A stretch of DNA of 64,000 nucleotides from Planctomycetota bacterium (GCA_019636275.1 JAHBXY010000034.1:4002-68001); one strand, 5' to 3'. Counted from the stretch's first letter, positions 16,301 through 36,219 are shown. Notes: generated from the letters alone by a model not told the origin. Made by a program: numbers and translations.

Positions 16301-19300
16301 GCCGGACGGTGGCGGTCAGTCCGTCCCTCCAGCCCGGCCGCTGCTACACCGTCTCGGTCGGGCGAGGGGTGCGCGACCTGGCAGGCAACGCCCTGGCCGA
16401 CTTCGGCCACGTGACGTTCTCGACCCTCACGAGCCAGCTCACGCCGCCCGCGCCCACGATCACGTCTCCCGCGAATGGCGCGACCCTGAGCGACCCGCGG
16501 CCGCTGATCACCGGGCACGCCGCTCCGCGCTACGAGGTGCACCTGTTCGTCAACGGCTTCCCCACCGGCCTCCGCACCGTGGCCCGCGACGACGGCACCT
16601 TCGAGATCGCGCCCTTCGCCCTGCCGGACGGCGATCTGACGCTCTTCGCCGTCACGGCCTGGCCGGGGGGCAGCCCGGCGTCGGTGCCAGGCGCGCCCGT
16701 GTCGTTCCGGATCGAGACCGAGCGCCTCCCGGCCTCGTCGCCGCCCGCGCCGGGCGCCACCGACGTGCACGAGGTCCTCGCGGGCGCGCTCGAGGAGCCG
16801 GCGCACCGCTACGAGCTCCGCTTCTCGGGCGACCCCGGGGCGCCGTTCGTGCTCGACGTGGAGACGCTCCGGCGCTCGCAGGGCCTCTTCGCGCCGATCG
16901 AGCTGCGCGTCGCGCCCGAGAACGGCGGCGGCACCTTCAGCGTGGCCGCCGGCCGCCAGACCCTCGGCGCGGGCAGCAACACGTTCGACGCCTCTGGCCA
17001 GGCGCGGGTGACCTACCGCGCCAACGACGTCGTCAAGGACGGCGCGCGGCTGCGCCTGGTCAACCCGCTCGACCAGACGGCGACCGAGCCACAGGAGGTC
17101 GTGCAGCGCTCACCGATCGCCTTCGTCGGCGTAGGGGCTTCTCCCCCCTTCGCGGGGCCGATCCGGGCCAGCGTGGCGCTGCGCGCCCGGCTCCTGAGGT
17201 CGCCCGAGACGGCCATCCTGGCAGGATCCGGGTACCCCGTGCGCGTGCGCGCGGTGGACGAGAACGGCGAGCCGACCGACGCCGTGGCGATCGACGGGCA
17301 GCCGGGCTCGACGGGGGCGACGGCCGTCACGGACGAGAACGGAAACGTGATCGTCACGTTCGTGCACCAGGACGGCGAGGCGCCGTTCGCCCTGGTCGTC
17401 GAGTCGGGCGCCAGCTTCGACTGCCCGCCGTTCGACAGACTTCAGCCCACGCGACTGGGCGAGTCGGGGATCTTCGTCCCGACGGGCGGGGAGTCGGGCC
17501 CCGGCGGCGTGTTCCTTGCCACCCGCAACGACCCGGTCAACAACCTGAGCGACGGACAGTGCGACGCGCTCGCCATGAGCAGGCCCTGTCCTCCTGAGCC
17601 ACCCGCCGGCGCGACGGCGCCGAAGAAGAGGACCCAACCGATCAACGTCGACCACGGAGGCAAGCTCCAGACCCGCGTCGACCTCGTCCTGCCCGGGCGG
17701 GGCGTCCACTTCGCGTGGACCCGGTCCTACAAGGGCTACGGCCTCTATGCGGGCCCGCTCGGTCACCGCTGGACGCACGGCTTCGACCAGCGCCTCCTCC
17801 GCCAGCCCTCGGGCGACGTGCTGTGGGTCACGGGCACCGCCCGCACCGAGACCTTCCGCAGCGTGGGCGGAGGGCGGTTCGCGACGCCGCGCGGCTTCGA
17901 CGTCGTCCTCTCGGTGGACGCCCAGGGCGTGGGTACGCTCCGCGACCCTTCGGGCGGGAAGGCGGTCTTCCGCGCCTTCGGTGCAGTGAACGCGCCGGGC
18001 GCCCTGGCCGAGGTCCGCGACGCGCACGGCAACCGCCTCGCGCTCGAGTACGGTGTCACGGGCGCCGTCGCCGGCCGACTGATCGCCGTCGTCGACCCGC
18101 TGGGCCGGCGGGTCGACCTGGGCTACGACCTGCTCGGTCGGATCGTGACGGTCACCGACCACCTCGGCCGCCAGGTGCGCTACCGCTACAGCAGACTCGG
18201 CGACCTGATCGCCGCGACGTCGCCCGAGGTGCTCGCCACGACCGAGGGCGAGCTCCTCCCGGCCGCCGATCAGTTCCCGGAGGGCCGGACCGAGGTCTAC
18301 GCCTACACGAGCGGCTTCGCCGACGAGCGGCTGAACCATCAGATGCTCCTCCGCGTCGCCCCCGTCGAGGCGGCGAAGCTCCCGCCCGGGCGGCTCGAGG
18401 ACCTGAGCCTGCTGCGTCCGCTGGCGTGCGTCGAGAACACCTACGACCTCGACCCGGACTCGCCCTCGTACGGGAGCGTGATCAAGCAGCGCTGGGGCGG
18501 CGAGAGCGTGCTGCCCGCCTGGACGGGCGAGACGGCGCCGCTCGCCGCGGGCGGCACCTCGACCTTCCGCTACGAGGACCTGCCGCTGCCGCCCAACGCA
18601 TCGCTGAACCACCCGGCCCGCAAGACGACGATCGTCGACCGGGCGGGGAACCTGGTGGAGCTGTTCCACAACCGCGCCGGGCAGTGCGTGCGGGTGCGCC
18701 AGTACACGAACCGCAACGTCCGCCCGGGCGAGCCCGAGTTCTACGAGGCCACGAAGGTCTACAACCACGCCGGGCTCCTGATCGCCCACACCCTGCCGAC
18801 CGGGAGCACCACGCGCTGGATCCACGCCGACGAGGACCTGAACGGGGACGGCGCGCTCACGCCCGGCGAGGACCGAAACGGCGACGGCGACTTCGACGAC
18901 CCCGAGGACGTGCAGCCCGAGGACGACCCGCGCTACGCCTACCGGCCGGGCAACGGCGTCCTCGACCGGCGCGCGCCCTGGCAGCGGCTGCAGCTCCTCA
19001 GGGTCGTGCAGGAGCCCGACGCCCGCGGCGACACGCGCGGTGGCGTGCGGCCGCGGATCCGGACCTTCGAGTACGACCCGGTGTTCGGGCGGCTGATCCG
19101 CCACACCGACCCGCGCGGCCACGACTCCGACTACACGCCCCAGAACGGCGGGCCGTGGTCGCCCGAGCGCTACACGAGCCACGTGCGCCTCGACTACCAG
19201 CAAGGCGAGCCGACCGCCACGCGCGCGGCGCTGGCCGCCGAGCTGGGCACGAGTGAGGCCGACCTCCAGGCGCTCCTGGACGAGGCCGGCGTCGTGCTGG

Positions 19301-22300
19301 GGCTCGGGGACCTCAATGCCTCGCCGGCCGACGACGGCCACCGCTTCGGCGACCCCGTGCGCGCCGAGGCGCCCTCGGTGCGCGTCGCGACCGGGCAGAC
19401 GCTCATGCAGGCGGTCTACGGCCCCGCGCAGGCGGTCGTGACGCTGCTCGAGACGAGCCCCCTGGGCCAGCCCCTGCGCGCGGTCGACCCCGAGGGGAAC
19501 GTCACGCTGTTCCACTACCACCCCGAGGCCGATCCCGACGGCGACGGCGTTCCGGAGCCGGGGGTCACGTCGACGGTGACGACCGGCGGCTGGCTGGCCG
19601 AGGTGATCGTCGACGCCGTCTCGGCCCCGGGCCGCAACGCCGGCACGAACCCGCCGCCCGTGGCCGCGCGCACGCGCCTCTTCTACGACCGCGCGGGCAA
19701 CCCGACGCGGGTGATCGACCCGCGCGGGGTCGAGCACCGCACGACCTACAACGTGCTCAACGAGCCGGTCTCCTCGCGGGTGGCCACCGCGATCGTCGGC
19801 TCGTCCGGGGGCCCGGTCACCGAGCCGGGCCTGGCGCCGCTGGGCTACGAGGCGCGGGTCACCTACGACGCCAACGGCCGCCCGGTCGAGGTGCGCGTGA
19901 GCAACGCCGGTGAGCGCGACGGCTCGGTGACGCAGGTGGCGACGAACCCCTGGTGGACGCGCAAGGTCGCCTACGACCTCCTCGACGGCGCCGTCCTCAC
20001 GCTGGCCGAGGTCGAGCCGATCGCCGACGACGCGTCGATCACGGTGAGCTCGCCGGGGGTCGTCGTGAGCCGGGTCGTCTACGAGCCCAACCGCGACGTG
20101 CGCCTGGTGGTCAAGCCGGAGGGGAACGTCGTCCACTACGTCCACGACGAGCGGAGCCGGCTGGCCTACGTCACCGACGGCCTGGGGACGCCCGAGCAGG
20201 CGACGACGACGCTGCTCGTCGACGTGAACGGCAACCTCGAGCGGATCGTGAGCCCGGTCAAGCGGAACCCGACCAAGGCGCCCGGCTACGCGGGCGACGT
20301 CACCCTGCTCCGCTACAACGGCTTCGACGAGCAGATCTGCACGCACGACCCGGAGGGGAACTGCGGCGACGCGGTCATGGATCCGCTGGGCCAGAAGGTG
20401 CGCTTCGTGCGGCACGGACCGAACGAGGAGAACCTGCCGCGCCTGCTCGAGGTGGAGTACCACTACGACGAGCTAGGCCGGCTCTTCCGGACGGACGCGC
20501 GGGTGTTCGAGGACCTGACGCAGCGCTTCGAGAAGCACGGCGCGGCCTTCCGCACGATCCCCACGATCGACCACGCGCCGCCGGCCGGGGAGGAGGAGGC
20601 GGTCACGCTCGTCGAGCTCGACGCGCTCGGGCGGGCCCTGCGCGGGGTCGACCCGAAGGGCGACGAGAGCCTGGCGGTGTGGGACGGCGCCGGCCGGCTC
20701 CTGCGGGCGCTGGGGCCCATGTTCAGCTCGGTCGCGGGCGCGGGCGCCGTGCGTAACGAGGTGCGCTTCGCCTACAACCAGGCGGGCCAGCCGGTCTCGG
20801 TCACGACGTTCGACCGCTCGCCGCTCGGGCTCGAGCAGACCTTCACGTCGACGGCGGCCTACGACGCCGTGGGCCGGCTGTTCCAGGCCACCGACCCGGC
20901 GGGGCACACCGGCCGGCTGGTGTACGACTCGCGCGGCAACGTGATCGGGGCCTCGGACGCCAACTCCCTGGCCACGGTGCCCAACCTGCCAGGCCTCTGG
21001 CCGCCGACGGTGAACGGCCACGGCAACGTCGCCCGGACCTTCTACGACGGCCTCTCGCGCCCGGTGGCCAGCGAGGTCTTGCTGAAGAAGGGCGGCGTGG
21101 GCGACGGCAGCCTCGACGACACGAACCTCGACACGGGCAACGCGAGCAACCCCGACGGCAAGATCACGATCACCCAGCGCTGGGATCGCAACTCGCGTCT
21201 CGTCTCGCGCAGCGACGACAACGGTAGCACCACCGGCTGGGCCCACGACGCCCGCGACCGCGTCGTCTACACCCTCGGCGCCGACCTGAGCGTCCAGCGC
21301 ACGCTCTACGACCCCGACTCGCTCGTGCGGCAGACGATCGACCGCAACGGGACGGTGATCGACAGGTCGTACGACGCGGCCGGGCGGTTGTTGAAGGTCG
21401 AGGCCACGCGGCGGGCCACGAACCTCGAGGGCACCGGTCAGGCGGTCGAGGGGACGGCCGTGCAGGCGTTCGAGTACGACGGCCTGCACCGCGTGCGCCT
21501 GGCGGTCGACCAGAACGACCCGCTCGACCCGACGGACGACGTGGCGACGTCGTTCACGTACGACTCGCTGGGGCGGCAGCTCACGGAGCGGCACCGCTTC
21601 CGGGCGCAGACGAGCCTCGTGAGCACGTTCGCCACGCAGGGCCGGATCACCGTCGGCGCGGCGGGGATCGACCGGACGATCACGCGGACGTTCGACCTCG
21701 ACTCGAACCGCACGTCGACCACCTACTCGAGCGGCCGGACGCTCACCTACCAACTGGACGGCCTTGACCGCCTCCAGGCGATCCGCGACTCCGTCGGCAC
21801 GATCACGGCCATGGAGTTCGTGGGCGGGCGGCCGCTGGCGAGCACCACGGGCCGCGGGACGGTGAGCACGTCCTACTCGTACGACGCGAAGCGGCGGCTG
21901 ACGGGCCTGGACCACGTCGGGAGCGCAGGGAGGATGGCCGGCTTCGGCTACGCGTGGGACCGCGCCGACCGCCGCGCGAGCGAGACGCACCTGCCGGCGG
22001 TGGGCGTGGCGGCGCGGACGGAGACCTACACGTACGACTCGGCGTCCAGGATCACGCGCGTGGCCTTCGGCGACGCGCGGCCGGACACGTCGTGGGTGAT
22101 CGACGGCGTGGGCAACTGGGTCAGCCGCACCGAGGGCGGCCAGACGCAGACCACGAACCAGCGCCAGAACGGGAGGTACGCCCCGGACCTCATGAACGAG
22201 GTCCAGCGCCTGGCGACGTTCAACGCGCTGGGCTCGCTCGTGAAGGACGAGCAGCACACCCAGGACCCGAACGGAAACCGGATCAAGAGCGGCGAGTGGC

Positions 22301-23769
22301 GGCTGTCGTTCGACGTGTTCGACCGGCTCGTGCGCGTGGAGCGGACGAGCGACGGGCAGACGGTCGGCAGGTACCGGTACGACGCGCTTGGCCGGCGCGT
22401 CGACCGGTGGTTCGTGGCTCGCGGGGAAGCGGTCGGGCAGCAGGCGTTCCACGTCAACGACGGCGCGCAGGAGGTCGAGGAGGTCGACGGGGCGGGCAAC
22501 GTCGTCGCCGACTACGTGTGGGGCGGGCTCTACCTGGACCAGGTCGTCCAGATGCGGCGGGGGGGGCAGGAGTACCACCTGCACGCCAACTCGATCTGGT
22601 CGGTGGTCGCGGCGACCGACGCGAGCGGGGCGGTGGTGGAGCGGTACTCGTACGCGTCGATCTACGGCGTGTGCGAGGTGCGCGACGCCGCGGGTGCGCC
22701 GCGGGCGAGGAGCGAGGAGATCGGGAACCCGTGGAGGTTCCAGGGGAGGAGGTTCGACCCGGAGACGGGCTTCTACTACTTCAGGCTGAGGTACCTGGAC
22801 CCGGAGGGAGGGAGGTTCGTCAGCAGGGATCCGCTGGGGATCTGGGGAGACGCGGGGCAGTTCGGGAATGCCTACTCGTTCTGCGGGAACGATCCGGTCA
22901 ATCGGGTGGATCCGTGGGGGTTGGAGGGGGAGGACCGTGGGCCGGATCGGCCATGGTGGGTCTACATTCCAATAATTGGTCCATGGTGGGAGTTCCAGGA
23001 AACAAGGAGGGCTGCTCAGGAGTCGGAGGCTCGCCAGGACGAATGCGATCGGGAGTATCTGACTACGGCGCAGCAGGTAAGGCTCGGAGCACGTCGGGTC
23101 ACTCTCTACACGGCCACCGCTGGGTCCGCGATTGTGGCCGGAGAGGCGGGGGCGGTCGTTGCCTACTTTTCGGCACCAATCATCAGCCAATTCGCCACTC
23201 GGCTACTGAGCAGCCTTGGGCTACGCGGGGCGTTCAGTCTTGCGCAGAATCTCGCGTACCGCGCGTACGTTTGGGCTGCAACGCGCCTAATGGGGATTCA
23301 GTTGCGCTTCCTCGGCATCGGCGCAGCCGGAGCCGGAGGCGCCGCGCAGAGAATGGGAACCAGCGTAGTTCAGACGGGCGAGCGAAGCGTCCGACTGGAG
23401 ATCGAAGGACAGGTCGTTGGCACCATGAGGGTCGTTGCGGACAGGGTTACAGGCGCAATGAACACCATGAAGGGAGGACTTGACATTCGTGGTGTGGCGC
23501 CTCAAGGGCAAGGCTACGGGAAGGAACTCCTCATCAAGTCGTTCGACGCCCTCCGCGCACTCGGCTATCGGGTGACCAGATTCAGGACGGATTGGACACC
23601 AGGGCTGGACACGAATCTCAAGGCATTCCAAAGGGCCATTGCGAGTGGGATGTCTCCCCAGCGAGCCGCGTTCGAGACGCCCACCGGCAAAGCGATGCTT
23701 GACCTGGGATTCACAAACGTCGAGATCATCAAGAACACCGCAGGGCAGGTCATCCTGGAGTTCTTCTAA
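10396..23769 (+). CDS. giant secreted RHS/YD-repeat polymorphic toxin (Ig-like stalk, RHS shell, variable C-terminal toxin tip with GNAT-like fold)
   Basis: About 4458 aa with a signal peptide. Roughly 2400 aa of repeated Ig-like or carboxypeptidase-regulatory-like modules come first. The RHS shell starts near 17640 (WTRSYKGYGLYAGPLGHRWTHGFDQRLL) and contains many YD repeats (YDSRGNV, YDAAGRL, YRYDALGRRVDR). The RHS core ends at PWRFQGRRFDPETGFYYFRLRYLDPEGGRFVSRDPLGIWGD...DPVNRVDPWGL (22909-22923). A 282-aa low-GC tip follows, with hydrophobic segments and then VRLEIEGQVVG...LDIRGVAPQGQGYGKELL (GNAT motif A-like). Confidence 0.9.
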   Translation: MTSREKRARRATLLTLAAAAGAAGLVVTSRAQEPPPSEAVVTLAFDAVADTYVAKDAQNRPHGSEAALAVEQAPRRRALVRFDLAAVGAWLAPDRLESAELELTIAGEVSLPPAGKQATLPIGAHRLTAAWSEAAATWTRPAAGQSWSMDKAPLPFADAPTTTLSLARGQRGVVRLDVTRDVAAFLAGETPGEARDHGWVLRCLDESGPGAVRFTSREAGAGPRLVVRLRDVTPPSLVIDTPVEDAWTGPADQVRVTFTDPRTGIAAGSFAARVGGVDVTGHFEVGPGGATAPLAALAAALAQGPNQLACEVRDVAGNLASAEVGYRFDSVGPAAALTPPPGAVVTTDTISVRVTYEDLGAGVDLATVAASLDGEPLALEVGAAEATAVVTLGHGEHTLTAEVRDLVGNPTVASSTFRVVLFGALEGVVGGARAEDARMITPLPGVRVRALTPEAPEVVTDHQGNFTLPGVRAGQPVVLVADGATQGFGRAYMTVEAVADRSVPVDRSVILHELPAEQTPLALDADGRTTQQLVLTNPDVPGLSLTIDAGSRVVLPDDLTPGVTPALSITRLAWAATPNPLASDLYASWWVMAHPVGAQVVEGFGLTLPNDLGLPPGTEVTFQQFDHRTGALFPKTTLRVSADGSRLEGRFNSDLLNGAAAVAGGPPMTVSFNVDLTASGSVSTLFAQLNGASAGLYPTATPGVYVFTGTQPTNPTGGTPSTPIITLTRTPTFPTTIQPVPTTPPPGTTTNTIGSVPLICEVWPQAIGPGQTLHVRVAGAPHFHALVAHVGNQSAPLSHLATQGDVYLFRSPADAPLPEGSYVLEWQQGSPFRDDKLWFSGAPPANRLALDRTAPAISTLSFPEGVTTQPQATLQLVTGDAVAGIRSVELQAFSGSTFETVAGPFLFGEAGSFGPTSVNLSQSLPLTTGTNRVRAVVVDTAGISQVRETTVVLDTVPPVFLATSFPPTVTRHAQLLFSTQVTDEHSLVEQVSLLRDGMVAQTSTSPGKTVTRQFTEIVPDGRYTYSFRAVDSAGNVAHSASQEVVVDRAAPMITDVSAVKSADDAFTITFTVTEVGPAGLAGYEIERFRFGVPAGTVAADALSGFGPVTITLTDADRPDGDYSYRIRAIDQAQNEQVVTVEAGKVDQSPPAIHVGDLSGGVFGPGVRTGTCVVEDNFDPEHLSVFLDGAAPTLTITREQVAVDLVRTTISFSILKLVEGQHDLQVSATDPGGNTTTVNGTFTVDLTAPEVTQVEPASGLSSTPTIEFSADHEDILSEIVPDSTTLVLASDPIDLTAIALRTPTRTSATVTGVPDGQHTFILRLTDRAGNVTEHRHPVLVDTRAPQVTVTQAPAPAPAWTRDPRAPLRATFHDDGGSGVAEVRLLLDGVDVTDEASVSATSLTFAPDTLTNAAHEYRLEVRDRAGHVTTVSLPFQVDAAPPSAPGRPLAGARPLAATTIVRWLPSVDAGPSGVALYRLFRSEDGGETFQLAATTAATEATVAFPTGEKTVFRLVAVDAAGNVSAAVDAKGCEVVALHELTTAVSTVLQVRVQRSDGSPIADALVTETGGTGVVLAHLGDGLYRSGALTVPSGQPLYLQISADGTAFVSGPLLPLLPETTETDFGLVVLARHRLAQHVFAAGGQSGGQVGFTLGEAGAFGPPPATSGGFELAGGFWHGVDVEGEVVVHVLQTPPVLCAPYLPLTFEVVADGGAFDVTVEYSTDAGATFAPATIVAGATQALAGTPVGRRYMAIWHADADLGDLSLADVVVRVSPVGRPERGGRIGTTLIRSFKVLAVEPRAGTRDLDPQGELALTFSRPVTNDPANLAASIVLEDAVAGTSEPVDLFASGTPLGVAVRVVPRSALAPDREYRLRVLPGLRPATGQFVFDQHELVLGLSAFEAAYRTGGLDARAPRLLSSVPAHGAGGVPTGQTVFLFFDEELDPASVTDQSVVVTTAMGVVPAPVSLLADGRTVAVSPSLQPGRCYTVSVGRGVRDLAGNALADFGHVTFSTLTSQLTPPAPTITSPANGATLSDPRPLITGHAAPRYEVHLFVNGFPTGLRTVARDDGTFEIAPFALPDGDLTLFAVTAWPGGSPASVPGAPVSFRIETERLPASSPPAPGATDVHEVLAGALEEPAHRYELRFSGDPGAPFVLDVETLRRSQGLFAPIELRVAPENGGGTFSVAAGRQTLGAGSNTFDASGQARVTYRANDVVKDGARLRLVNPLDQTATEPQEVVQRSPIAFVGVGASPPFAGPIRASVALRARLLRSPETAILAGSGYPVRVRAVDENGEPTDAVAIDGQPGSTGATAVTDENGNVIVTFVHQDGEAPFALVVESGASFDCPPFDRLQPTRLGESGIFVPTGGESGPGGVFLATRNDPVNNLSDGQCDALAMSRPCPPEPPAGATAPKKRTQPINVDHGGKLQTRVDLVLPGRGVHFAWTRSYKGYGLYAGPLGHRWTHGFDQRLLRQPSGDVLWVTGTARTETFRSVGGGRFATPRGFDVVLSVDAQGVGTLRDPSGGKAVFRAFGAVNAPGALAEVRDAHGNRLALEYGVTGAVAGRLIAVVDPLGRRVDLGYDLLGRIVTVTDHLGRQVRYRYSRLGDLIAATSPEVLATTEGELLPAADQFPEGRTEVYAYTSGFADERLNHQMLLRVAPVEAAKLPPGRLEDLSLLRPLACVENTYDLDPDSPSYGSVIKQRWGGESVLPAWTGETAPLAAGGTSTFRYEDLPLPPNASLNHPARKTTIVDRAGNLVELFHNRAGQCVRVRQYTNRNVRPGEPEFYEATKVYNHAGLLIAHTLPTGSTTRWIHADEDLNGDGALTPGEDRNGDGDFDDPEDVQPEDDPRYAYRPGNGVLDRRAPWQRLQLLRVVQEPDARGDTRGGVRPRIRTFEYDPVFGRLIRHTDPRGHDSDYTPQNGGPWSPERYTSHVRLDYQQGEPTATRAALAAELGTSEADLQALLDEAGVVLGLGDLNASPADDGHRFGDPVRAEAPSVRVATGQTLMQAVYGPAQAVVTLLETSPLGQPLRAVDPEGNVTLFHYHPEADPDGDGVPEPGVTSTVTTGGWLAEVIVDAVSAPGRNAGTNPPPVAARTRLFYDRAGNPTRVIDPRGVEHRTTYNVLNEPVSSRVATAIVGSSGGPVTEPGLAPLGYEARVTYDANGRPVEVRVSNAGERDGSVTQVATNPWWTRKVAYDLLDGAVLTLAEVEPIADDASITVSSPGVVVSRVVYEPNRDVRLVVKPEGNVVHYVHDERSRLAYVTDGLGTPEQATTTLLVDVNGNLERIVSPVKRNPTKAPGYAGDVTLLRYNGFDEQICTHDPEGNCGDAVMDPLGQKVRFVRHGPNEENLPRLLEVEYHYDELGRLFRTDARVFEDLTQRFEKHGAAFRTIPTIDHAPPAGEEEAVTLVELDALGRALRGVDPKGDESLAVWDGAGRLLRALGPMFSSVAGAGAVRNEVRFAYNQAGQPVSVTTFDRSPLGLEQTFTSTAAYDAVGRLFQATDPAGHTGRLVYDSRGNVIGASDANSLATVPNLPGLWPPTVNGHGNVARTFYDGLSRPVASEVLLKKGGVGDGSLDDTNLDTGNASNPDGKITITQRWDRNSRLVSRSDDNGSTTGWAHDARDRVVYTLGADLSVQRTLYDPDSLVRQTIDRNGTVIDRSYDAAGRLLKVEATRRATNLEGTGQAVEGTAVQAFEYDGLHRVRLAVDQNDPLDPTDDVATSFTYDSLGRQLTERHRFRAQTSLVSTFATQGRITVGAAGIDRTITRTFDLDSNRTSTTYSSGRTLTYQLDGLDRLQAIRDSVGTITAMEFVGGRPLASTTGRGTVSTSYSYDAKRRLTGLDHVGSAGRMAGFGYAWDRADRRASETHLPAVGVAARTETYTYDSASRITRVAFGDARPDTSWVIDGVGNWVSRTEGGQTQTTNQRQNGRYAPDLMNEVQRLATFNALGSLVKDEQHTQDPNGNRIKSGEWRLSFDVFDRLVRVERTSDGQTVGRYRYDALGRRVDRWFVARGEAVGQQAFHVNDGAQEVEEVDGAGNVVADYVWGGLYLDQVVQMRRGGQEYHLHANSIWSVVAATDASGAVVERYSYASIYGVCEVRDAAGAPRARSEEIGNPWRFQGRRFDPETGFYYFRLRYLDPEGGRFVSRDPLGIWGDAGQFGNAYSFCGNDPVNRVDPWGLEGEDRGPDRPWWVYIPIIGPWWEFQETRRAAQESEARQDECDREYLTTAQQVRLGARRVTLYTATAGSAIVAGEAGAVVAYFSAPIISQFATRLLSSLGLRGAFSLAQNLAYRAYVWAATRLMGIQLRFLGIGAAGAGGAAQRMGTSVVQTGERSVRLEIEGQVVGTMRVVADRVTGAMNTMKGGLDIRGVAPQGQGYGKELLIKSFDALRALGYRVTRFRTDWTPGLDTNLKAFQRAIASGMSPQRAAFETPTGKAMLDLGFTNVEIIKNTAGQVILEFF
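20758..22923 (+). repeat. 2.17-kb direct repeat (RHS core), copy 1; partner at 38602-40767
   Basis: Near-identical DNA and protein between the main RHS and the orphan cassette, running from EVRF(A/T)YNQAGQPV to DPWGL. Confidence 0.9.
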
Positions 23770-24397
23770 TGCCCTCGAGAGCCCAGTGACCAACCGTATG
23801 GCGCAGCATGGCCAGGGAGCGCTCTCCAAGGACGCGTCCGCCGTATGTAATCGCCCACAAGAGATCATCTCCTTGGTCGTCCATGTCTCGGTTGACCGAC
23901 GCGCGAGCGAACGCTCGAACTGCAAGTGCGCAGAAACACAACCGCTGGGCACCCGCCTGGTCCGCAATCTGACTAAGCGAACTGAGGTCGTCGTCCTGAC
24001 TAACTACACGCTGCCGGTGGTCATCGCATTGACATGCTTGCCAGCGACGAACTGACTCAACGAACGGTGAGAGAGTGCGCCCACCCGCGAACGAGTGGTC
24101 AGCGACGAGCCACTCTCTCGCGACAGCCACGGCGACCGCTTCTGACGCGCGAATCGCTCCGTCACGCCACCGCGAGATCAAGGCAGAAGCCCACGCTCCC
24201 AAGGTTTCTGCCTCCCCGGGTTGAACATCACCGACAGCCCTCCTCGCCCCCTCATGCCCGCAGTACGCCGCCAACTCCAGCCGCTCCCGCGTGAGGTCCC
24301 CCACGCGCACGCGCTCCAGCAGGTAGGCGGCCTCGTCCTCGACGGCGCCCGTCTCCCGCCAGCGGCGTTCGAGTTCGCGTAGCTTGGCGTCGCTCAT
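23750..24397 (-). CDS. candidate cognate immunity protein (convergent to toxin tip); conserved N-terminus, variable C-terminus
   Basis: 215 aa. The ATG has the RBS GGGGAGAG. It overlaps the toxin stop by 20 nt. The first ~55 aa (MSDAKLRELERRWRETG...AAYCGHEGARR) are shared with the paralogue at 41716-42312, and the sequences then diverge. Local GC drops to about 56-60%. Confidence 0.5.
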   Translation of the reverse strand: MSDAKLRELERRWRETGAVEDEAAYLLERVRVGDLTRERLELAAYCGHEGARRAVGDVQPGEAETLGAWASALISRWRDGAIRASEAVAVAVAREWLVADHSFAGGRTLSPFVESVRRWQACQCDDHRQRVVSQDDDLSSLSQIADQAGAQRLCFCALAVRAFARASVNRDMDDQGDDLLWAITYGGRVLGERSLAMLRHTVGHWALEGIRRTPG

Positions 24398-24676
24398 GAC
24401 GGCTGACTCTCCCCCGGAACCCCGAGCATGACCGTCCCCGCCGACATGCGCCGCGTCCTCCGCGCCCTCGCCGGCAAGCCCTGCTGGCACGTCTCGGCCG
24501 GCCCCGGAGTCGGCTCGACGTTCCAACTCGCCCTGGGTGCCAAGGTGCCACGGGCGAGGCCGCTCGCCAACCCTGCGCAGCCGCCGGCCTACCGGAAGTT
24601 CGAGGGCGAGTGCGCGCTCATGGTCTGGTGCGCCTGGCGACTCGACGGACCGCAGGGACCGGTGGTCAGCAGCGAC
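24232..24676. repeat. 445-bp direct repeat, copy 1 (divergent promoter block plus the 5' ends of two genes); partner 42147-42591
   Basis: Near-identical sequence at both sites. It encodes the N-termini of the minus-strand immunity-like genes and of the plus-strand MTVPADMRRVLRALAGK... genes. Confidence 0.85.
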
Positions 24677-24928
24677 TCCGAGGACGAGGTTGTGGACCGC
24701 CTGCTCACGCGCGCCCTGCGCGGCCGGACGGTCGAGCGGGCGCGGATCACGGTGCCGCTGGCGTGGGACCTGGAGGTCGCGTTCGACCGCGCGCTCGTCT
24801 TGCGCGTGCTCTGCGACCACCTGCCCGGCGACCCGTCGTTCGACGGCAACTACGAGGTCGTGCTGCCGGACCGGGAACTGGCCGTCGGGCCGGGGCGCAA
24901 GTGGGAGGTGGTGCCGAGGCGCCGGTGA
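24428..24928 (+). CDS. hypothetical protein (divergent partner of immunity-like gene)
   Basis: 166 aa. A truncated paralogue is at 42343-42591. The RBS is weak. Confidence 0.4.
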   Translation: MTVPADMRRVLRALAGKPCWHVSAGPGVGSTFQLALGAKVPRARPLANPAQPPAYRKFEGECALMVWCAWRLDGPQGPVVSSDSEDEVVDRLLTRALRGRTVERARITVPLAWDLEVAFDRALVLRVLCDHLPGDPSFDGNYEVVLPDRELAVGPGRKWEVVPRRR

Positions 24929-25313: not shown

Positions 25314-25697
25314 TTACTCCTCTTCCTCGTCGTCGTCGTCGTCCTCGCACTCGTCGCAGCCCTCGCAGTCCTCGTCGTCGCACTCGGGCTCCTCGAGGTC
25401 GTCATCCGACTCGTCGTCGTCTTCTTCGTCGGCCTCGTCCTCATCCGACTCGTCGGCATCCTCGTCGAGGTCGTCGTCCGACTCCTCCTGGTCTTCCTCC
25501 TCGTCTTCGCACTCGCGCTCACACTCCAGGACCTGCTGGTGGACCCACTCCCGCAGCTCGTCGATGTCCCACCGCCTGTGGCCGCCGATCGTCTGCTCGC
25601 ACGGGGCCCCAAGGGCCGCCCACCTGCACACGGTCGAGGCCGAGACGCCAAGGGCCTGGGCGGCCTGGCTTGTCGTCAGTAGCACGTTGTCTGGCAT
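25314..25697 (-). CDS. MerR/excisionase-family HTH protein with extreme poly-acidic, Cys-containing C-terminal tail
   Basis: 127 aa. The N-terminus LLTTSQAAQALGVSASTVCRWAALG...GGHRRWDIDELREWV is a helix-turn-helix. About 70 aa of D/E-rich tail follow (…CDDEDCEGCDECEDDDDDEEEE). Confidence 0.7.
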   Translation of the reverse strand: MPDNVLLTTSQAAQALGVSASTVCRWAALGAPCEQTIGGHRRWDIDELREWVHQQVLECERECEDEEEDQEESDDDLDEDADESDEDEADEEDDDESDDDLEEPECDDEDCEGCDECEDDDDDEEEE

Positions 25698-25782
25698 GTT
25701 TCGAACTCCGTCACCCGCTCAGACTCGACAGATAATCCGCGCAAGACGCGCATGCAAGGCTCGATGTGGGCTGTCGAGGCCT

Positions 25783-25840
25783 GACACGCCACAAGTCATC
25801 TGCGGCAGATGATTTGTCAAATCTGCGGCGCCCGAAGATT
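25783..25840. promoter_or_regulatory. palindromic operator-like site in divergent promoter region (tcatctgcggcagatga; second half-site atctgcggcg)
   Basis: A 17-bp near-perfect palindrome lies between the divergent HTH gene (25697, minus) and the 25874 plus gene. Confidence 0.4.
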
Positions 25841-25873
25841 CCTCGCGACTACGATCAGTCGGGAGGACTCGCC

Positions 25874-26416
25874 ATGGCGAACAGGACCCTCGTCGACGCT
25901 GTCGTCCAGCTCGGTCAGGTCGTCGAGGACCTGTCGGCCAGGGTCGCCGCGCTCGAGGCGGCTCGCGCCGACCTCGAACGGAAGACGGAGGTCGTCCAGG
26001 CCGCGCAGCGATCCTGGCGTCCGCTCATGCGGGTTCAGGGCGACCTGATGATCGCCAGCGAGGCCGGCGACACGGCCCGCGTGCCGCTGTCGGTGTGCCG
26101 TGCGTTGGCCGCCGGCAGGGCGCTCGACCTGGATGTCGCGCATGAGGGTGAGCTCGTTCGACTCGTCGATCATGGCGGACGCGCCGTCGCCACCTTGCCC
26201 AGGGCCGCCCTGCTGGCGCTGCCGCGGGTGCTGGGGTCGCCGGAGGCGACGAAGCTCTTGGGTGCGACGACGACTACAGGAGTTGGGTGTCGTAGTCGGA
26301 GTCGGACGACAGGAATGACAAGTATCGGATCGCCCGAGAACCGCGCGACAGGCCCGGTTCCGAGGCACAACAGCTCAGCGACAACAGGACCGGACTTCCG
26401 GGAACAGGAGGCCTGA
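25874..26416 (+). CDS. hypothetical protein (coiled-coil N-terminus)
   Basis: 180 aa. RBS GGGAGG is 7 nt upstream. It is the first gene of a 4-gene plus-strand block. Confidence 0.5.
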   Translation: MANRTLVDAVVQLGQVVEDLSARVAALEAARADLERKTEVVQAAQRSWRPLMRVQGDLMIASEAGDTARVPLSVCRALAAGRALDLDVAHEGELVRLVDHGGRAVATLPRAALLALPRVLGSPEATKLLGATTTTGVGCRSRSRTTGMTSIGSPENRATGPVPRHNSSATTGPDFREQEA

Positions 26417-26417
26417 C

Positions 26418-28226
26418 ATGGCTAAACGCGACGACATCCGGGTGCGACTGCTCGAACTCCTCGCAACAGGGCCTGCGAGCCTGCGACCGCTCTTCGCCGA
26501 GTTCCCGCGCTGGGAGGTCTATGCCGCGCTCAAGGAGCTCAGGGAGGAGATGCTGGTCATGCCGGGGCCGACGAAGGGCACCTGGCAGCTCACGCAGGCC
26601 GGGGTTCAGGCCGCCGAGGGCGCGCCGGTGCCGCCGGCGAGGTCCCCGATGAACTGGCCCACGCTGCCGGGCGTGCCGCACCTGGACGTGCTGCCCTCGC
26701 GCGAGCATCAGGCGCTCGGGCGACTGGTCCTGCTGGCCGCCACAGCCCGCCGGCACTACGAGCACCACCACGCGAGCTTCGTCTTGTTCAGCAGGTCGGG
26801 TCTGCGGGGCAAGACCTGGCTTGGGCGCTGGGCGTCGCTGGTCCTCGGTGGCGGCGACGTGGTGCACGCCGTCGCCGAGGGCGGGCGGTCGCTGGCCGCG
26901 CGGCGCCGAGGTGACGGCCAGGTCGCGGCGGTGCGGGCGGCGCTGGGCAGGCCGATGCTGATGATCGACGAGTGGCGGCGTGGGTCGACTGAGGTGCGGC
27001 GGTTGACGACCGTGCTCATCCACGGCGACAGGTTCGTCCCGTTCGAGGACGCGCAGATCCAGGTCGCCGCGGTCATCCTGCTCGCGATGAACTCCCCCGC
27101 CGGCGCCGAGAGCGTCGAGGAGGCGACCGGCCTCGACGCCCCGATGATCCGCAGGTGCTTGGTCACCTTCCTGGAGCGTGTGGTCCTGGATGCGGCGTTC
27201 GCCCGCGATGGCGAGGAGCGCCTGGATCGTGTCCGCGAACTCGGGCCTGTCGCGCTGCCTGACGTCAGGCCCGGCGCTGTGGACGAGCGCAGCCTCCGCG
27301 ACCGGATCGCCGACGCGCTGGAGGTCGTCTTGGACAGCCGCGAGCGCATGGGGTCGCTCGACCTGGTGCTGCTCGGTCAGCTCGCGGTGGCGGCCTGCGC
27401 GTGGGGCCTGTCGGTCGAGGAGGCGGTCGCCATGGTCGTGCACTCGTGCTGCGTGCTGTGGGCGACCACGGGGTGGACGGCGGCGGCCTGGGAGGAGCGG
27501 CTCGCCGAGGTGGTCGGACGAGACGAGGATGCTCACGAGGTCGAGGAGGCCGATGTCGTCATGGAGGATGACATCAAGTGCGACCACGCCTGGGAGGACC
27601 GGGTCGCCGAGCTCGACCGGGTCGCCCGGGCGCATGGCGCTGGCGACCCGACGGTGCTCGATTATCTGCTCCGGCTGGCGGCGGCAGTGCGCGGCGTGGG
27701 CCTGGGCGCCAAGGACCTCGCGGGAATCAGGGAGATGCTCACGATCGTGCGCGGGCGCGACGTCGACGCCGAGGGACGGCTGCGGGTCCTGGCCGCCATG
27801 GACGAGTGTGAGATCTCGCCCGAGGAGGCGAGGCGCGTGCTCGAGGTCGTGGCCGCCGGGAGGGAGGCGTTCGGCCTGGGCGCCGAGGACGTGATGCAGA
27901 TGCTGCGCGGTATCGGAGAGGCGGGACTGGACCCGGGCGAGGTCGGCGCCTGGGCGGCGTGGTCGATGGCGGAGCTCGGCAGGCTGGATGGCGAGGTCGA
28001 GCTGGCGCGTTCGGAGCTGCGGCGCTGGCGGCGTGATGTGGGGGAGGCGGCGGACCATCTCGCAACCCTCAACGCGAGGATCACCAAGCTCGCCGAGCTC
28101 ATCGGACGCGCGAGGAGCGAGCCGGGGCTGGCACGGCTGGTCGTCATGGCGGACTCGGAGCGAGGGCGCCAAGTCATTGCGCAGGTCATGCGGGCAGCGG
28201 AGGAGATTAGCGCGGCGACATCGTGA
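26418..28226 (+). CDS. hypothetical 602-aa protein with N-terminal winged-helix-like region
   Basis: RBS CAGGAGG. The N-terminus IRVRLLELLATGPASL...EVYAALKELREEMLV is wHTH-like. Confidence 0.5.
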   Translation: MAKRDDIRVRLLELLATGPASLRPLFAEFPRWEVYAALKELREEMLVMPGPTKGTWQLTQAGVQAAEGAPVPPARSPMNWPTLPGVPHLDVLPSREHQALGRLVLLAATARRHYEHHHASFVLFSRSGLRGKTWLGRWASLVLGGGDVVHAVAEGGRSLAARRRGDGQVAAVRAALGRPMLMIDEWRRGSTEVRRLTTVLIHGDRFVPFEDAQIQVAAVILLAMNSPAGAESVEEATGLDAPMIRRCLVTFLERVVLDAAFARDGEERLDRVRELGPVALPDVRPGAVDERSLRDRIADALEVVLDSRERMGSLDLVLLGQLAVAACAWGLSVEEAVAMVVHSCCVLWATTGWTAAAWEERLAEVVGRDEDAHEVEEADVVMEDDIKCDHAWEDRVAELDRVARAHGAGDPTVLDYLLRLAAAVRGVGLGAKDLAGIREMLTIVRGRDVDAEGRLRVLAAMDECEISPEEARRVLEVVAAGREAFGLGAEDVMQMLRGIGEAGLDPGEVGAWAAWSMAELGRLDGEVELARSELRRWRRDVGEAADHLATLNARITKLAELIGRARSEPGLARLVVMADSERGRQVIAQVMRAAEEISAATS

Positions 28227-28262
28227 TCAGCCGCCGCCCGGGGTGCCACGCCGCCGCTCCGC

Positions 28263-31200
28263 ATGTCAGTGAGCCGGAGTAGCGTCCGCCGCATGACCAT
28301 CTTCGACCTGTGGAACTGCAAGATCTACGAGGCCGTCGAGTCCATGCTCGACGAGGACGAGGACCTGCACGACGCCGTCGTCGACCCCGTCCTCGACCTC
28401 GCCCGCGCGATCGACGACGCCCTCTACGAGTGGCGTGTCACGCGGGCCGAGGGCCGTCACGCCGACGAGGTGCGCGCGGCCGCCCTGGCCGTCAGCGAGG
28501 CGGTGCTCGCGCTCGACCGCGGGCTGCCGACCTCGGTGTCGATCGGCGACGACGACGACGACGACGCCTACACGGACCTGGACCTGAGCGACATCTCGCG
28601 CGAGGTCGCCAGGCTGGTGATCGACGAGGGCGTCCCCGTGCTCTGCGTCGTCCGCGAGATCCACGACGGGCCGCGGCTCGTGCTGTCGCTCGCTGAGCAC
28701 GAGGCGCTGGACGCCCTGGCGACGGAGTATCGCGAGTACATGAGCGCGCTCCAGCGCGCGCGCGAGCAGTTCGCGCGCGCGCGCGTGCCGGAGAAGCTCA
28801 TGTCCGCCGACGAGGCTCGTGTCCGGATCGCGATCGCGCTGGCCGCGCCCGACCGCACGATCGCGCCCGGCGAGGTCCTCGCCATCGCGGTCACGCCAGG
28901 CGCCGGCAAGTCGTCCGGCGCGCAGGCCGCGGCCCGTACGCAGCCGGCTCTGCCCCTGGCCTATGTCGCACGCGACCATCGCCTGACGCGGCAGGTCTGC
29001 GCCGACCTGCTGGCGCCCTCCGCGCTGCCCGCACGCCGCACCACCAGGCGCATGGGGATCCTCTCGCCGCGCGGCGATCAGGACGACACGCCCCTCTGCC
29101 TGCGGCCAGAGGAGGCGAAGGCGATCCTCGAGGCGGGCGGCTCGCCCGCTCGGCTCCTGTGCGCGACCTGTCGACACGCGCCGCCGCACGGCGGCGCGTG
29201 CAAGGCGTACGGCGGCAGCGAGGGCAGCGCGCCGGACGCCCTCGTGACCGTGCCGCACCTGTCGCCGGTCGTCGACGCCTGGTGCGTCGACCAGGACCTG
29301 CCCCCCATGGTGATCATCGACGAGCCGCCGCCGGTCACCGACACCGTCGTCGTCTCGTCGCAGCAGGTGGAGCGGGCGATCGTCGTCCTGCGCGCTGCGC
29401 GCGCGGGCCTGACGGCCCCGCGCGCGCTGCCCAAGCGTCGGCACGATCGCCGTGGGCCGCGCAAGCTCGCGGACGGCAGGTACCGCCTCGGCGGGCCCGC
29501 CGTGGAGCCAGCGGTGGCGATCGCCGTCCTGCCGGCGCTCGAGCTCGTGCGGCGCCTGCTCGCGAGCGGGCGCGCGACCGAGGTCCCCTACGGCGTCGAC
29601 CCCGCGACCATCGTGCTCGACCCCGCTCCGCCGCCGATCCCGCACACCGCCACCGCGGTCGCAGACGCCGCGCGCGACCTCCTGCGCGCGAGCGTCGACC
29701 ACGCGTGGGGGCAGCGCCGGGGCGTGGTGACGACCTGGGTCGACGACCTGCGCGACCTCGGGCTGCCGGTCGGCGCGCCGCCCGCCACGGCCGACTGGGA
29801 GAGGCTGGACCCCACGCCCTGGATCGACGCGGCCAGCGGCGGCCTGTCGGTGCTCGCGCCCGTGACCTCGCTGGGCGACGACCGCGCCACGGTCGGCGTC
29901 GAGGAGGCCCTCTCGGAGCCCGCGCGGAGCACGCTCGCTGCGGCCGCGGAGGACGCGCCCCGCGCGCTCGACGCCCTGCGCGCGCTCTCGACCGGCCGCA
30001 CCCTCGCGCGCTGGCTCGCGCCCCAGCGCGAGCGCGGGCTGCCGCAGGGAGTCGCGCGCGTCGTCGATCGCACGATCGTGGTCACCGCGCCGAGCGTGCG
30101 CGCCGCCGAGCTGCTCGGCGCGCGAGGCCACCTCGCCGTGCTCGACGCGACCCCCGACCGCGCTGGTCTCGCGGCCGCCGCGCGCTGGGTGGGGCGGCAG
30201 CCGGTCTGGCTCGACCTCGACGTCGACGACGGCGCGGACGTGCGCCGGGAGATGATCTACGCCTCGGCTTCGGCGAAGCGCATCCTGCTCGCGGGGGGCG
30301 AGGTCCAGTGGGACGCCCTCGGCAGCCTGCTGGTCCATGCGCTCGAGCGAATCGGAGGTGACGCCGTCAGGACGGTCCTCGTCGTCACCCACAAGGCCGT
30401 CGCGGACGCCCTGCGGCCGATCCTGCACCTCGAGCGCCCTCACCTCCGCAAGGTCGGGCACGAGGGCGCTGCCGACGCGCTCCGCGGATGGTACGAGGGG
30501 CTGCCGGGTCGCCAGATCATCCTCGCCCACTACCACGCGATCCGAGGGCAAAACGCCTTTAGGTGGCGCAAGGACGAGATCCCATGGATCGCTCTCGACG
30601 CGTGCGTCACGATTGGGGACCCGTACCCGACGCTCGACCATGCGCGTGACGCAGGCATCCTGCTCGGCCTCGACGCCCCCATGGATCGCGTGCGCCAGCT
30701 CGCCGCCGACGAGCTCGCGCAGGCGCACGGTCGCCTGCGCGCGCCCGTGCGACCACGGCCAGGGCTGTCCGTACATCTCGGCCAGGTCGTACCGACCGGC
30801 TGGCATCCCGGCAACGCGGCGCTCATCGAGCTCGAGCGCGGGCGACCGCCGGATCCGGCGGACATGTCCCGCGAGGAGCTGCTCGCGCTCATCGCCGCCC
30901 ACGGGTCGGCAGGTGCGCTCGCGCGCGCCGCGATGGTGGCGCCATCGACGATCAGTCGGTACCTGTCTGGCAAGCGGATCCTGACGGCCTCGACGGCAGA
31001 GCGCCTGCGGGCTGCGCCGCTGCCGCCAGGAGTGACGCCGCCGGTCGTTGCCGCCGACGTCGTCGCCGCAGGCGCGCCGTCGGAGATCGATGCGCCGGCG
31101 ACCGACGCTGACGAGCCGCCGCCGCCCGCGCCGACTGCGCCGCCACCGATCATCCTGCCGCAGGTCGTCCGACTCGCGCCGCCCAGACCCCTGCCGGTGG

Positions 31201-31466
31201 ACGACGACGAGGCGCGGGCCCTGCTCTGCGCGCGCGTCGAGGAGGTCGAGGGCGTCCTCGCCGCGCGCCTCGCCGCCCTCGAGGTGGCGCTGGCCGACGT
31301 CACTGACGAGCGCCAGCGCGTCGCGGCCACCCGCCGCTGGCTCGAGGCCACGCCCGTGACGCCGGCCTGGCCGGCGTCGGACGCCGAGCGCGCCGCCCGG
31401 CTCCTGGGCGGCGTGCCGGCCGCCATAACCCGCCTCGCGGCGGAGCAGTGGTGGGTCGGACGCTAA
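28263..31466 (+). CDS. large P-loop NTPase (Walker A AVTPGAGKSS, Walker B VIIDEPP) with acidic N-terminal region and C-terminal XRE-like HTH
   Basis: 1067 aa. An alternative start is at 28293 (MTIFDLW). The C-terminus STISRYLSGKRILTASTAERL is HTH-like. Confidence 0.55.
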   Translation: MSVSRSSVRRMTIFDLWNCKIYEAVESMLDEDEDLHDAVVDPVLDLARAIDDALYEWRVTRAEGRHADEVRAAALAVSEAVLALDRGLPTSVSIGDDDDDDAYTDLDLSDISREVARLVIDEGVPVLCVVREIHDGPRLVLSLAEHEALDALATEYREYMSALQRAREQFARARVPEKLMSADEARVRIAIALAAPDRTIAPGEVLAIAVTPGAGKSSGAQAAARTQPALPLAYVARDHRLTRQVCADLLAPSALPARRTTRRMGILSPRGDQDDTPLCLRPEEAKAILEAGGSPARLLCATCRHAPPHGGACKAYGGSEGSAPDALVTVPHLSPVVDAWCVDQDLPPMVIIDEPPPVTDTVVVSSQQVERAIVVLRAARAGLTAPRALPKRRHDRRGPRKLADGRYRLGGPAVEPAVAIAVLPALELVRRLLASGRATEVPYGVDPATIVLDPAPPPIPHTATAVADAARDLLRASVDHAWGQRRGVVTTWVDDLRDLGLPVGAPPATADWERLDPTPWIDAASGGLSVLAPVTSLGDDRATVGVEEALSEPARSTLAAAAEDAPRALDALRALSTGRTLARWLAPQRERGLPQGVARVVDRTIVVTAPSVRAAELLGARGHLAVLDATPDRAGLAAAARWVGRQPVWLDLDVDDGADVRREMIYASASAKRILLAGGEVQWDALGSLLVHALERIGGDAVRTVLVVTHKAVADALRPILHLERPHLRKVGHEGAADALRGWYEGLPGRQIILAHYHAIRGQNAFRWRKDEIPWIALDACVTIGDPYPTLDHARDAGILLGLDAPMDRVRQLAADELAQAHGRLRAPVRPRPGLSVHLGQVVPTGWHPGNAALIELERGRPPDPADMSREELLALIAAHGSAGALARAAMVAPSTISRYLSGKRILTASTAERLRAAPLPPGVTPPVVAADVVAAGAPSEIDAPATDADEPPPPAPTAPPPIILPQVVRLAPPRPLPVDDDEARALLCARVEEVEGVLAARLAALEVALADVTDERQRVAATRRWLEATPVTPAWPASDAERAARLLGGVPAAITRLAAEQWWVGR

Positions 31467-31563
31467 GTCCATATTTCGCTACGACTTGCCCGTTGCCAGA
31501 ACCCCACTATCTGTACTGTACTGGAATTCTGGCAACACGTAACAATGAGGAGGAACTGAGGTT

Positions 31564-32304: not shown

Positions 32305-32470
32305 GTCACCTCCGCTCGCGTCGGTCGCCCTGCGCGCGCGCGCGTCGTCGGGCCCGCGCGCGCGTTGTTCGGACCGCGCGCGCGGTCCTGCGCGCCCGCG
32401 CGCGCGTGTTGTTCGGGCCGCGCGCGCGTCGGTCGGACCGCGCGCGGGTCCTGCGCGCCCGCACGCGGCG
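32300..32470. repeat. GC-rich imperfect tandem repeat array (~20-22-bp units, core G(G/A)(C/G)CCGCGCGCGCG; includes perfect palindrome ggaccgcgcgcgcggtcc)
   Basis: About 7 units lie immediately upstream of the serine recombinase gene. Confidence 0.6.
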
Positions 32471-32525
32471 GCCAAGTTGCCCGCCCTGACGAATCACCCG
32501 CTACGGTCACGTCAGGAGGTCAGCC

Positions 32526-33143: not shown

Positions 33144-33179
33144 AGGGAGAGGGTGGGGTCGCGATGACCCCTGCCGACC

Positions 33180-35999: not shown

Positions 36000-36219
36000 C
36001 CGGGCCCTTGCACGCGTAGGCCCTTGCACAGCAAGGCCGTTGCACAGCGTTGCACGGCGCGTTGCACGGGCTAAGTGGCGCGCCCGTAGGCCCTTGAGCC
36101 CTCGGCCGGGTCTCCGGCACCGCCTCCACACCATCCATCCGGCCTGCGCCCCCCGTCGCAGGCCTAACCCACCACACCACCTCACCGAACCGCCGGCCCC
36201 GCCGGCAAGGAGTGCCTCG

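Follow-up and report, generated by a model that had tools for sequence, protein, structure and literature searches.

Toxin-facing genes with a constant N-terminal module and an Imm5_like-related variable domain are probable immunity genes of two RHS loci in a Planctomycetota genome

In the canonical rhs/rhsI systems of Salmonella (PMC3967940) and Serratia (PMC4524185), the core of a main RHS gene ends in a DPxGL motif and is followed by a variable tip, and the immunity gene lies immediately downstream on the same strand and has no constant part. Orphan modules of these systems, which consist of a 5'-truncated core, a tip, and an immunity gene, are found downstream of the main gene, and their core homology allows recombination. 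We analyzed 64,000 nucleotides of a Planctomycetota bacterium (GCA_019636275.1 JAHBXY010000034.1:4002-68001), referred to below as the window, which contains a main RHS gene and an orphan module of this kind. In contrast to the canonical systems, the candidate immunity gene of each is inverted, and a second conserved arm lies beyond the toxin-immunity cassette. The source contig belongs to a Planctomycetes metagenome-assembled genome (MAG), and the GC content of the window is about 75%.

The candidate immunity proteins resemble the Imm5 and Imm5_like families (PF14423 and PF21805; PMC3482391). Imm5 has been described as "mostly alpha," and tandem arrays and fused units have been described for polyimmunity loci (Zhang et al. 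2012, PMC3482391). With these families the present one shares a mostly alpha-helical fold, homology of its C-terminal domain at the profile level, a position beside the C-terminal domains of polymorphic toxins, and occurrence in same-orientation tandem arrays and fused multidomain proteins. It differs in adding a 53-amino-acid N-terminal module (N-module), in being convergent to the toxin, and in coming almost entirely from Planctomycetota MAGs. Immunity genes on the opposite strand, downstream of the toxin and with their own promoter, are known from ionophoric colicins and some pyocins (PMC9517006; PMC5358913). The genes studied here share that orientation and position, and an own promoter is predicted for them. 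The colicin and pyocin proteins, unlike those studied here, are membrane immunity proteins against pore formers, are plasmid-borne or associated with S-type pyocins, lack constant and variable modules, and show no homology to the present family. A looser parallel is provided by rAID-1 of the Bacteroidales (bioRxiv 10.1101/471110), where one or more genes for XerD-like tyrosine recombinases precede orphan immunity material arranged in long co-directional arrays with integron-like repeats. In the literature searched, neither convergent RHS immunity genes nor this N-module was described. The immunity superfamily is known, and the new elements are the convergent orientation at RHS genes and an N-module without a Pfam or NCBIfam match.

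From homology, genome comparison, and structure prediction, we conclude that two minus-strand genes of the window, ORF A and ORF B, are probably the cognate immunity genes of RHS tips 1 and 2, respectively, which they would neutralize. The features of the two loci are as follows.

10270-23769, plus strand: RHS1, full-length RHS polymorphic toxin gene of ~4499 amino acids (aa), exact start uncertain; GC content at third codon positions (GC3) 0.92
20758-22923, plus strand: left homology arm, 3' part of the RHS core, ending ...NDPVNRVDPWGL; 92.5% identical to 38602-40767 and 93% to locus L049 of another MAG
22924-23769, plus strand: toxin tip 1, 281 aa; hydrophobic/Gly-rich stretch followed by a toxin domain of ~140 aa
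23750-24397, minus strand: ORF A, candidate immunity gene A, 215 aa; ATG at 24397, stop TGA (TCA on the plus strand) at 23750-23752; NCBI tag KF878_12750
23750-24238, minus strand: variable Imm5-like C-domain of gene A, residues 54-215; contains CQCDDH; no DNA homology to locus 2
24239-24397, minus strand: constant N-module of gene A, residues 1-53, four short helices; 89.9% DNA identity to 42154-42312
24398-24676, no strand assigned: rest of the right arm in locus 1; 30-bp divergent intergenic region and first 83 codons of a 166-aa gene
24428-24928, plus strand: 166-aa gene, GC3 0.94; divergent from gene A; constant flank
38602-41709, plus strand: RHS2, orphan 5'-truncated RHS fragment; 722-aa core (38602-40767) and tip 2
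41716-42312, minus strand: ORF B, candidate immunity gene B, 198 aa; stop at 41716-41718; NCBI tag KF878_12830
41716-42153, minus strand: variable C-domain of gene B, residues 54-198
42154-42312, minus strand: constant N-module of gene B, from BLASTP and self-BLASTN against the gene A copy
42313-42591, no strand assigned: right-arm copy in locus 2; intergenic region and 5' 83 codons of the 166-aa gene, cut at 42592/42593

Both candidate genes run toward the toxin with which they are paired. RHS1 ends at 23769 and overlaps ORF A by 20 nt, and RHS2 ends at 41709, leaving a gap of 6 nt to the ORF B stop. The ORF coordinates and the sequence bear out the convergent geometry at 23750 and 41716 that had been described in an earlier sequence-only reading of the window. 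The translation of ORF A starts MSDAKLRELERRWRETG and that of ORF B MSDTKLRDLERRWRETG. When the two proteins were compared by BLASTP, their N-termini aligned with 49/60 identities, and there was no significant match past the N-terminus. Self-BLASTN of the window identified only two repeats between the loci. The first (24238-24676 and 42153-42591; 439 bp, 93.9% identical) holds the first 53 codons of both ORFs, so that the shared N-terminus does lie inside a conserved repeat as had been claimed, although this repeat is 439 bp long and not 445 bp. The second (20758-22923 and 38602-40767; 2166 bp, 92.5% identical) corresponds to the 3' part of the RHS core.

Long antisense ORFs are frequent in DNA of 75% GC, and GC content by codon position was ambiguous as a coding signal within the low-GC cassette. 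For these reasons, we judged the reality of the genes by homology. ORF A had 324 homologues at E ≤ 1e-3, far beyond chance, mostly of 190-260 aa and nearly all from Planctomycetota MAGs or metagenomes. A family profile built from 115 homologues retrieved 5187 cluster representatives among 1.84 billion proteins, and it spans residues 1-214 of ORF A and residues 1-193 of ORF B. AlphaFold models made with the family alignment were all-alpha for both proteins, with 12 helices for ORF A (pLDDT 91.8, pTM 0.86) and 10 helices for ORF B (pLDDT 80.7, pTM 0.74); the first six helices occupy the same positions in the two models. ORF A and ORF B are real genes, and the same MAG holds a further family copy (P0117).

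The two repeats delimit a cassette. The RHS core terminus, ...SRDPLGIWGD...NRVDPWGL, lies at 22923 and 40767 and is the exact end of DNA homology on the left. Homology restarts at 24238 and 42153, where the C-domain of the minus-strand gene adjoins its N-module. Between these points is a variable block of 1314 bp in locus 1 and 1385 bp in locus 2, made up of the toxin tip and the immunity C-domain. Beyond the N-module, the right arm is 100% identical to 42313-42591 in its intergenic part and 95.6% identical in its coding part, and since identical runs reach 91 nt, this arm suffices for homologous recombination. A third allele, L049, comes from a different MAG (GCA_026184275.1). Its RHS core is 93% identical at the DNA level and 96.5% at the protein level, its N-module is 89-92% identical, its 168-aa neighbor gene is 93-94% identical, and the same insertion sequence (IS) is present at 98%. 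The tip and C-domain of L049 are very divergent, with breakpoints within ~12 nt of those in the window. Across the three alleles, therefore, arms that are 89-96% identical enclose tips and C-domains that are unrelated or very divergent. L049 has a single module, and the mobile element described below is absent from it. These comparisons suggest that the toxin tip and the immunity C-domain form one swappable cassette between two arms. Only the C-domain of the convergent gene changes with the tip, which makes it the sole coding sequence able to supply specificity.

The plus strand downstream of the toxins was said in the sequence-only reading to hold no credible ORF. A real gene, the 166-aa gene, does follow tip 1, but it is located in the constant repeat and not in the variable part. 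It had no Pfam or NCBIfam match and was absent from all loci other than the window and L049, and its copy in locus 2 is cut after 83 codons by an IS. We rejected it as an immunity gene because a constant-arm gene that is cut short in locus 2 and missing from the other loci cannot serve three different tips.

The partner genes have the hallmarks of RHS polymorphic toxins, namely an RHS/YD shell, a DPxGL-(x)n-DPxGL core end, and a variable tip. The Rhs core domain TIGR03696 was matched by RHS1 (E 5e-20) and RHS2 (E 5e-19), and the N-terminus of RHS1 carries CBM96 and Big_13 domains. We also considered whether RHS2 is a complete gene and rejected this, as the part of its ORF upstream of ~38585 is out-of-frame, Arg/Pro-rich junk; homology to RHS1 (94.6% aa identity) begins at ORF residue 296. 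Tip 1 had no DNA match to locus 2 or L049 and only a weak GNAT-like match (E 0.13, with a QGQGYG motif). Its toxin domain is 42% identical to the RHS tip of L051 and 32% identical to that of L049; a homologue search with this domain and a metagenome scan for its relatives gave no matches, and the only relatives, those in L051 and L049, turned up by chance beside family genes. Tip 2 (40768-41709, 313 aa) matches DUF3990 (E 7e-10), which belongs to the ADP-ribosyltransferase clan of Pfam (PMC7955679) and is also carried by Serratia Rhs5-CT (PMC4524185). These toxin families suggest intracellular targets, which would fit a cytoplasmic immunity protein without a signal peptide. Both tips open with a hydrophobic, Gly/Ala-rich stretch before the toxin domain (22924-23350 and 40768-41330), and these stretches might be membrane-entry or pretoxin segments.

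The family to which ORF A and ORF B belong combines the near-invariant, helical N-module of 53 aa with a hypervariable all-alpha domain. The consensus of the N-module, taken from the alignment of 115 homologues, is MSDxKLRELERRWKETGSVEDEAAYLLERVRVGDLTxERLELAAYCGHEGA. It is followed by a short linker, a weakly conserved W..GL..WG helix, and the hypervariable rest. On its own, the N-module had no match in Pfam or NCBIfam at E ≤ 10. Between the two copies in the window, pN was 0.063 versus a pS of 0.23; the family mean pN/pS was ~0.48, with pS near saturation. By these ratios, purifying selection acts on the protein sequence of the N-module. The ten fused two-unit family proteins that we found repeat the module internally, so it does not serve as a targeting signal at the N-terminus. 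Within the module, Cys46 and His48 (YCGH; window ~24254-24262, minus strand) are near-invariant, and a C-x-C-x2-H motif near residue 120 is present in 41/115 members, including ORF A (residues 122-127; window ~24017-24034). Together, these residues could form a metal site. In one family member (L078, 349-933), the N-module is split or duplicated by an insertion of ~30 aa (MSDEKLRELERRFRETGSADDELAWLRECARSG...RWRVKTGDLSQERLEVAAWCGH).

The C-domain connects the family to predicted immunity proteins. The top match of the family profile was P0121, a protein of 2410 aa with 11-12 Imm5_like repeats that scores 263 bits against PF21805 and also matches Imm5 and Imm6. We built a hidden Markov model (HMM) of the C-domain from family members without ORF A and ORF B. 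This model matched all 24 Imm5_like repeats of P0121 and P0145 (E 2e-6 to 5e-17), and it also matched the C-termini of ORF A (51 bits, E 1e-17) and ORF B (21 bits, E 1e-8). The two C-termini are thus highly divergent versions of one domain, and their "complete" divergence in the sequence-only reading holds for the pairwise comparison only. At the Pfam level, 6/115 family members matched Imm5_like at E ≤ 0.01 and five matched DUF6931; residues 76-163 of P0089, the one member scanned singly, scored 36 bits against PF21805, above the gathering cutoff of 25. From these matches, the C-domain is at the profile level related to Imm5_like, a predicted immunity family of polymorphic toxins. The divergence is nevertheless extreme. 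The C-terminus of ORF A was at best 28% identical in pairwise comparison to any other listed member, and a homologue search with that of ORF B among 5.8 billion proteins returned only ORF B itself. P0121 and P0145 (3069 aa) each have ~12 tandem Imm5_like domains without the N-module, and P0145 adds a NUDIX domain.

To characterize the genomic setting of the family, we assembled 99 loci in addition to the window, 92 from scans of genome and metagenome contigs and seven more by exact-protein look-up, and ran an N-module HMM and an RHS core-end HMM on all of their six-frame ORFs. The 99 loci and the window contained 141 family ORFs and 14 ORFs with an RHS core end. The copies from the genome scan came almost entirely from Planctomycetota MAGs, often with ~8-12 per MAG. 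Twelve family ORFs adjoin an RHS tip (two in the window and one each in L001, L004, L007, L044, L049, L051, L053, L055, L060, and L078), 31 stand in tandem arrays of one orientation, in which the stop codon of one gene overlaps the start codon of the next (among them L071, with six copies, L077, L069, and L079), 10 belong to convergent family-family pairs, 70 are solitary, and 18 were not evaluable. All of the RHS-adjacent genes (12/12) are convergent, with stop-to-stop distances of -31 to +20 nt, and no locus examined had a co-directional RHS core end on the strand of the family gene. Immunity genes are expected next to their toxins, and in these 12 loci the stop of the family gene lies within this distance of the toxin's, in convergent rather than co-directional orientation. 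The 31 arrayed genes and the ten fused proteins have the organization described for polyimmunity loci (PMC3482391).

Some of these loci have features of their own. In L048, a gene weakly matching Imm1 stands two genes from an orphan family copy. In L014, L021, L029, L033, and L066, two family genes run toward each other, their stops are separated by 22-1000 nt, and the space between them holds no recognizable toxin; a toxin gene once present there may have been deleted. L046 is labeled uncultured Mycobacterium. L035 and L037 lie on a low-GC contig labeled Candidatus Woesearchaeota archaeon (JAGVZE010000016.1) that has six family genes with N-modules 50-62% identical, which could reflect misbinning, horizontal transfer, or a family that is more widespread.

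The RHS-adjacent pairs also allowed a comparison of toxin type with immunity subtype. The C-x-C-x2-H motif was found in the partners of all three tips that share the toxin domain of tip 1 (CQCDDH in ORF A and CPCATH and CPCSSH in L051 and L049; 3/3) and in one of nine partners of unrelated tips (hypergeometric P = 4/220 = 0.018). This suggestive pattern would associate toxin type with immunity subtype.

We hypothesize that each of the two proteins is a cytoplasmic, all-alpha protein in which the 53-residue N-module precedes a hypervariable Imm5_like-type domain, and that this domain would bind and neutralize the adjacent toxin domain. The gene would be transcribed toward the 3' end of the toxin gene from its own promoter, which may lie in the conserved upstream arm. 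Expression of immunity would then be independent of the RHS promoter, a property of particular relevance for the promoterless orphan fragment RHS2; the opposite-strand immunity genes of ionophoric colicins follow this logic too. Because the immunity gene is inverted, its constant 5' part is distal to the toxin, and the variable unit (1.3-1.4 kb) is consequently bracketed by the RHS core end on one side and by the N-module and upstream DNA on the other. Homologous recombination between these arms could swap toxin and immunity specificity as one cassette. Antisense interference with the 3' end of the toxin gene is possible; the 3' overlap is not conserved, as the distance between the stops varies from locus to locus.

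Several observations weigh against this assignment. Neighbors of RHS tips make up only 12 of ~123 evaluable family genes, and the solitary copies adjoin housekeeping genes where this was checked. ORF A, ORF B, and their C-termini had no match in Pfam (E ≤ 10) or NCBIfam, and none of them reached the gathering threshold of Imm5_like (PF21805). The link of ORF A and ORF B to Imm5_like is transitive, running via the family profile only; an HMM made from the Imm5_like repeats of P0121 and P0145 alone gave a nonsignificant ~0-1 bit against the two C-termini. The covariation of tip and immunity subtype rests on 12 pairs, one motif, and few related tips. A promoter scan with the sigma-70 consensus, which does not cover planctomycetal promoters, found none above shuffled expectation, and neither did a scan for terminators. 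All of the data come from MAGs and metagenome contigs.

Some of these points would be explained if the family were instead accessory to the toxins, as a tip chaperone, adaptor, or regulator, with true immunity encoded elsewhere or not needed. About 90% of family genes lie away from RHS tips, ORF A and ORF B are singly below the Pfam thresholds for Imm5_like, and the high conservation of the N-module points to a constant partner, an unusual trait among immunity proteins. Furthermore, no solved structure resembling the ORF A model was found, and profile searches of PDB sequences, run with the family, tip 1, and tip 2, gave designed helical proteins or nothing. We nonetheless consider an accessory role unlikely. 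The C-domain is homologous to Imm5_like repeats, the variable half covaries with the tip inside the cassette, no other gene of the cassette is able to supply specificity, and the tandem arrays and fused units fit polyimmunity behavior. In addition, the chaperones known for Rhs proteins (Eag/DUF1795) bind N-terminal regions, and their genes lie upstream. Of the two options offered by the sequence-only reading, a new class of locus-associated proteins with the true immunity factors elsewhere finds no support, as the proteins belong at the profile level to a known superfamily of predicted immunity proteins, even though their N-module is undescribed. The other option, convergently transcribed immunity genes, is favored by the Imm5_like relation, the uniform orientation at RHS tips, the change of C-domain with tip in three alleles, and the association of toxin and immunity subtypes, while its premises about plus-strand ORFs and C-termini were inexact.

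Two further explanations concern the locus itself. The shared N-terminus may be a mere by-product of a recent segmental duplication that arose when the 14-kb integrase element between the loci recombined into the RHS locus: the copies flank the mobile-element block as direct repeats that are 92-94% identical, and L049, which lacks the element, has one module. Duplication would account for two copies here but not for the architecture of the family, in which >100 genes found across many unrelated MAGs and metagenomes combine a near-invariant N-module with C-termini that all differ, and the pN/pS ratio indicates constraint at the protein level. We regard it as a very unlikely explanation. Still less credible, and in our view extremely improbable, is that true immunity is encoded by small plus-strand ORFs antisense within the minus-strand genes (23786-24055, 89 aa, and 24034-24294, 86 aa, after tip 1; 41747-42010, 87 aa, after tip 2). 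ORFs of similar size do begin 30-40 nt past each toxin stop, and in the low-GC cassette the composition at the three codon positions gives no clear signal. Among the 12 RHS-adjacent loci, however, such ORFs had no consistent size or position (12-214 aa; longest per locus, 58-214), a scatter expected by chance in DNA of 64% GC, and both the profile of independent homologues and the confidently predicted structures support the minus frame over its full length.

The window also offers material on how toxin-immunity cassettes might move. Two mobile features accompany the RHS modules.

25314-38381, no strand assigned: mobile-element block between the RHS modules; HTH_17 excisionase-like gene, genes for proteins of 602 aa and 1067 aa, resolvase, HTH_3, AAA/MarR, and two tyrosine integrases
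42772-43863, minus strand: IS transposase (rve_3; Pfam match), 98% aa identity to the L049 transposase

The two tyrosine integrase genes (36483-38381, plus strand) stand in tandem directly upstream of RHS2, and their products are 35% identical to each other. In L004 and L007, genes for AAA/MarR and one or more integrases lie beside an RHS fragment and a family gene; in L011 they lie beside a family gene, and in L055 the HTH_17 and 602-aa genes lie beside a family gene and an RHS tip. L005, with AAA/MarR and one or two integrases, is also among the recurring pairings with RHS fragments and/or family genes. The order of tandem integrases, RHS2 fragment, and immunity gene B, which recurs in L004 and L007, parallels that of rAID-1; here, a single convergent tip-immunity cassette takes the place of the long arrays. 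We infer recombination between the chromosomal RHS locus and a circular element that brought in a core fragment together with its tip, immunity gene, and arm, an event that would yield the direct repeats observed. A more far-reaching and tentative proposal, which we find rather doubtful, is that the inverted gene and the constant N-module are an adaptation that makes the cassette two-armed. The integrase element (25314-38381, with relatives in L004, L007, L011, and L055) would then insert a spare core-tip-immunity cassette into RHS loci by Campbell-type recombination and so rearm toxin and immunity at once, and the N-module would additionally have a conserved protein function, such as a Cys/His metal site or binding of the constant RHS part.

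The HTH_17 (excisionase/MerR-like) protein (25314-25697, minus strand) has an extremely acidic C-terminal half rich in Asp, Glu, and Cys, and its N-terminus is 98% identical in metagenome locus L091. The region of the rve_3 IS (42592-44063) is 97.8% identical to positions 2921-4398 of L049 in the other MAG, where a 112-150-bp scrap of RHS core lies just past the IS, at 2854-2992. A gene at 52452-56408 (plus strand) encodes a 1318-aa bacterial protein similar to the major vault protein (MVP), with matches to MVP_shoulder (E 2e-19), Vault_3, and Vault_4, and is preceded by a gene for a patatin-like phospholipase. Finally, an intergenic, imperfect palindrome of ~210 bp (6746-6956; 75.7% identical to its own reverse complement) lies upstream of the undecaprenyl-diphosphate synthase gene.

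The orientation described here has consequences for how such systems are found and how they may work. Zhang et al. counted unidirectional operons only (PMC3482391). Surveys of polymorphic toxins look on the same strand, directly downstream of the toxin, and a clade whose immunity genes face the toxin would therefore be missed or scored as immunity-less. With an inverted gene, expression of immunity can be uncoupled from that of the toxin, which would be useful for orphan modules and for defense against neighbors, and specificities held between two conserved arms would offer a simple route to joint exchange of toxin and immunity. The family is large and joins a highly conserved 53-residue module to a variable half that tolerates almost any sequence, making it a candidate natural binder scaffold and a tractable system for the study of codiversification between toxins and their immunity proteins.

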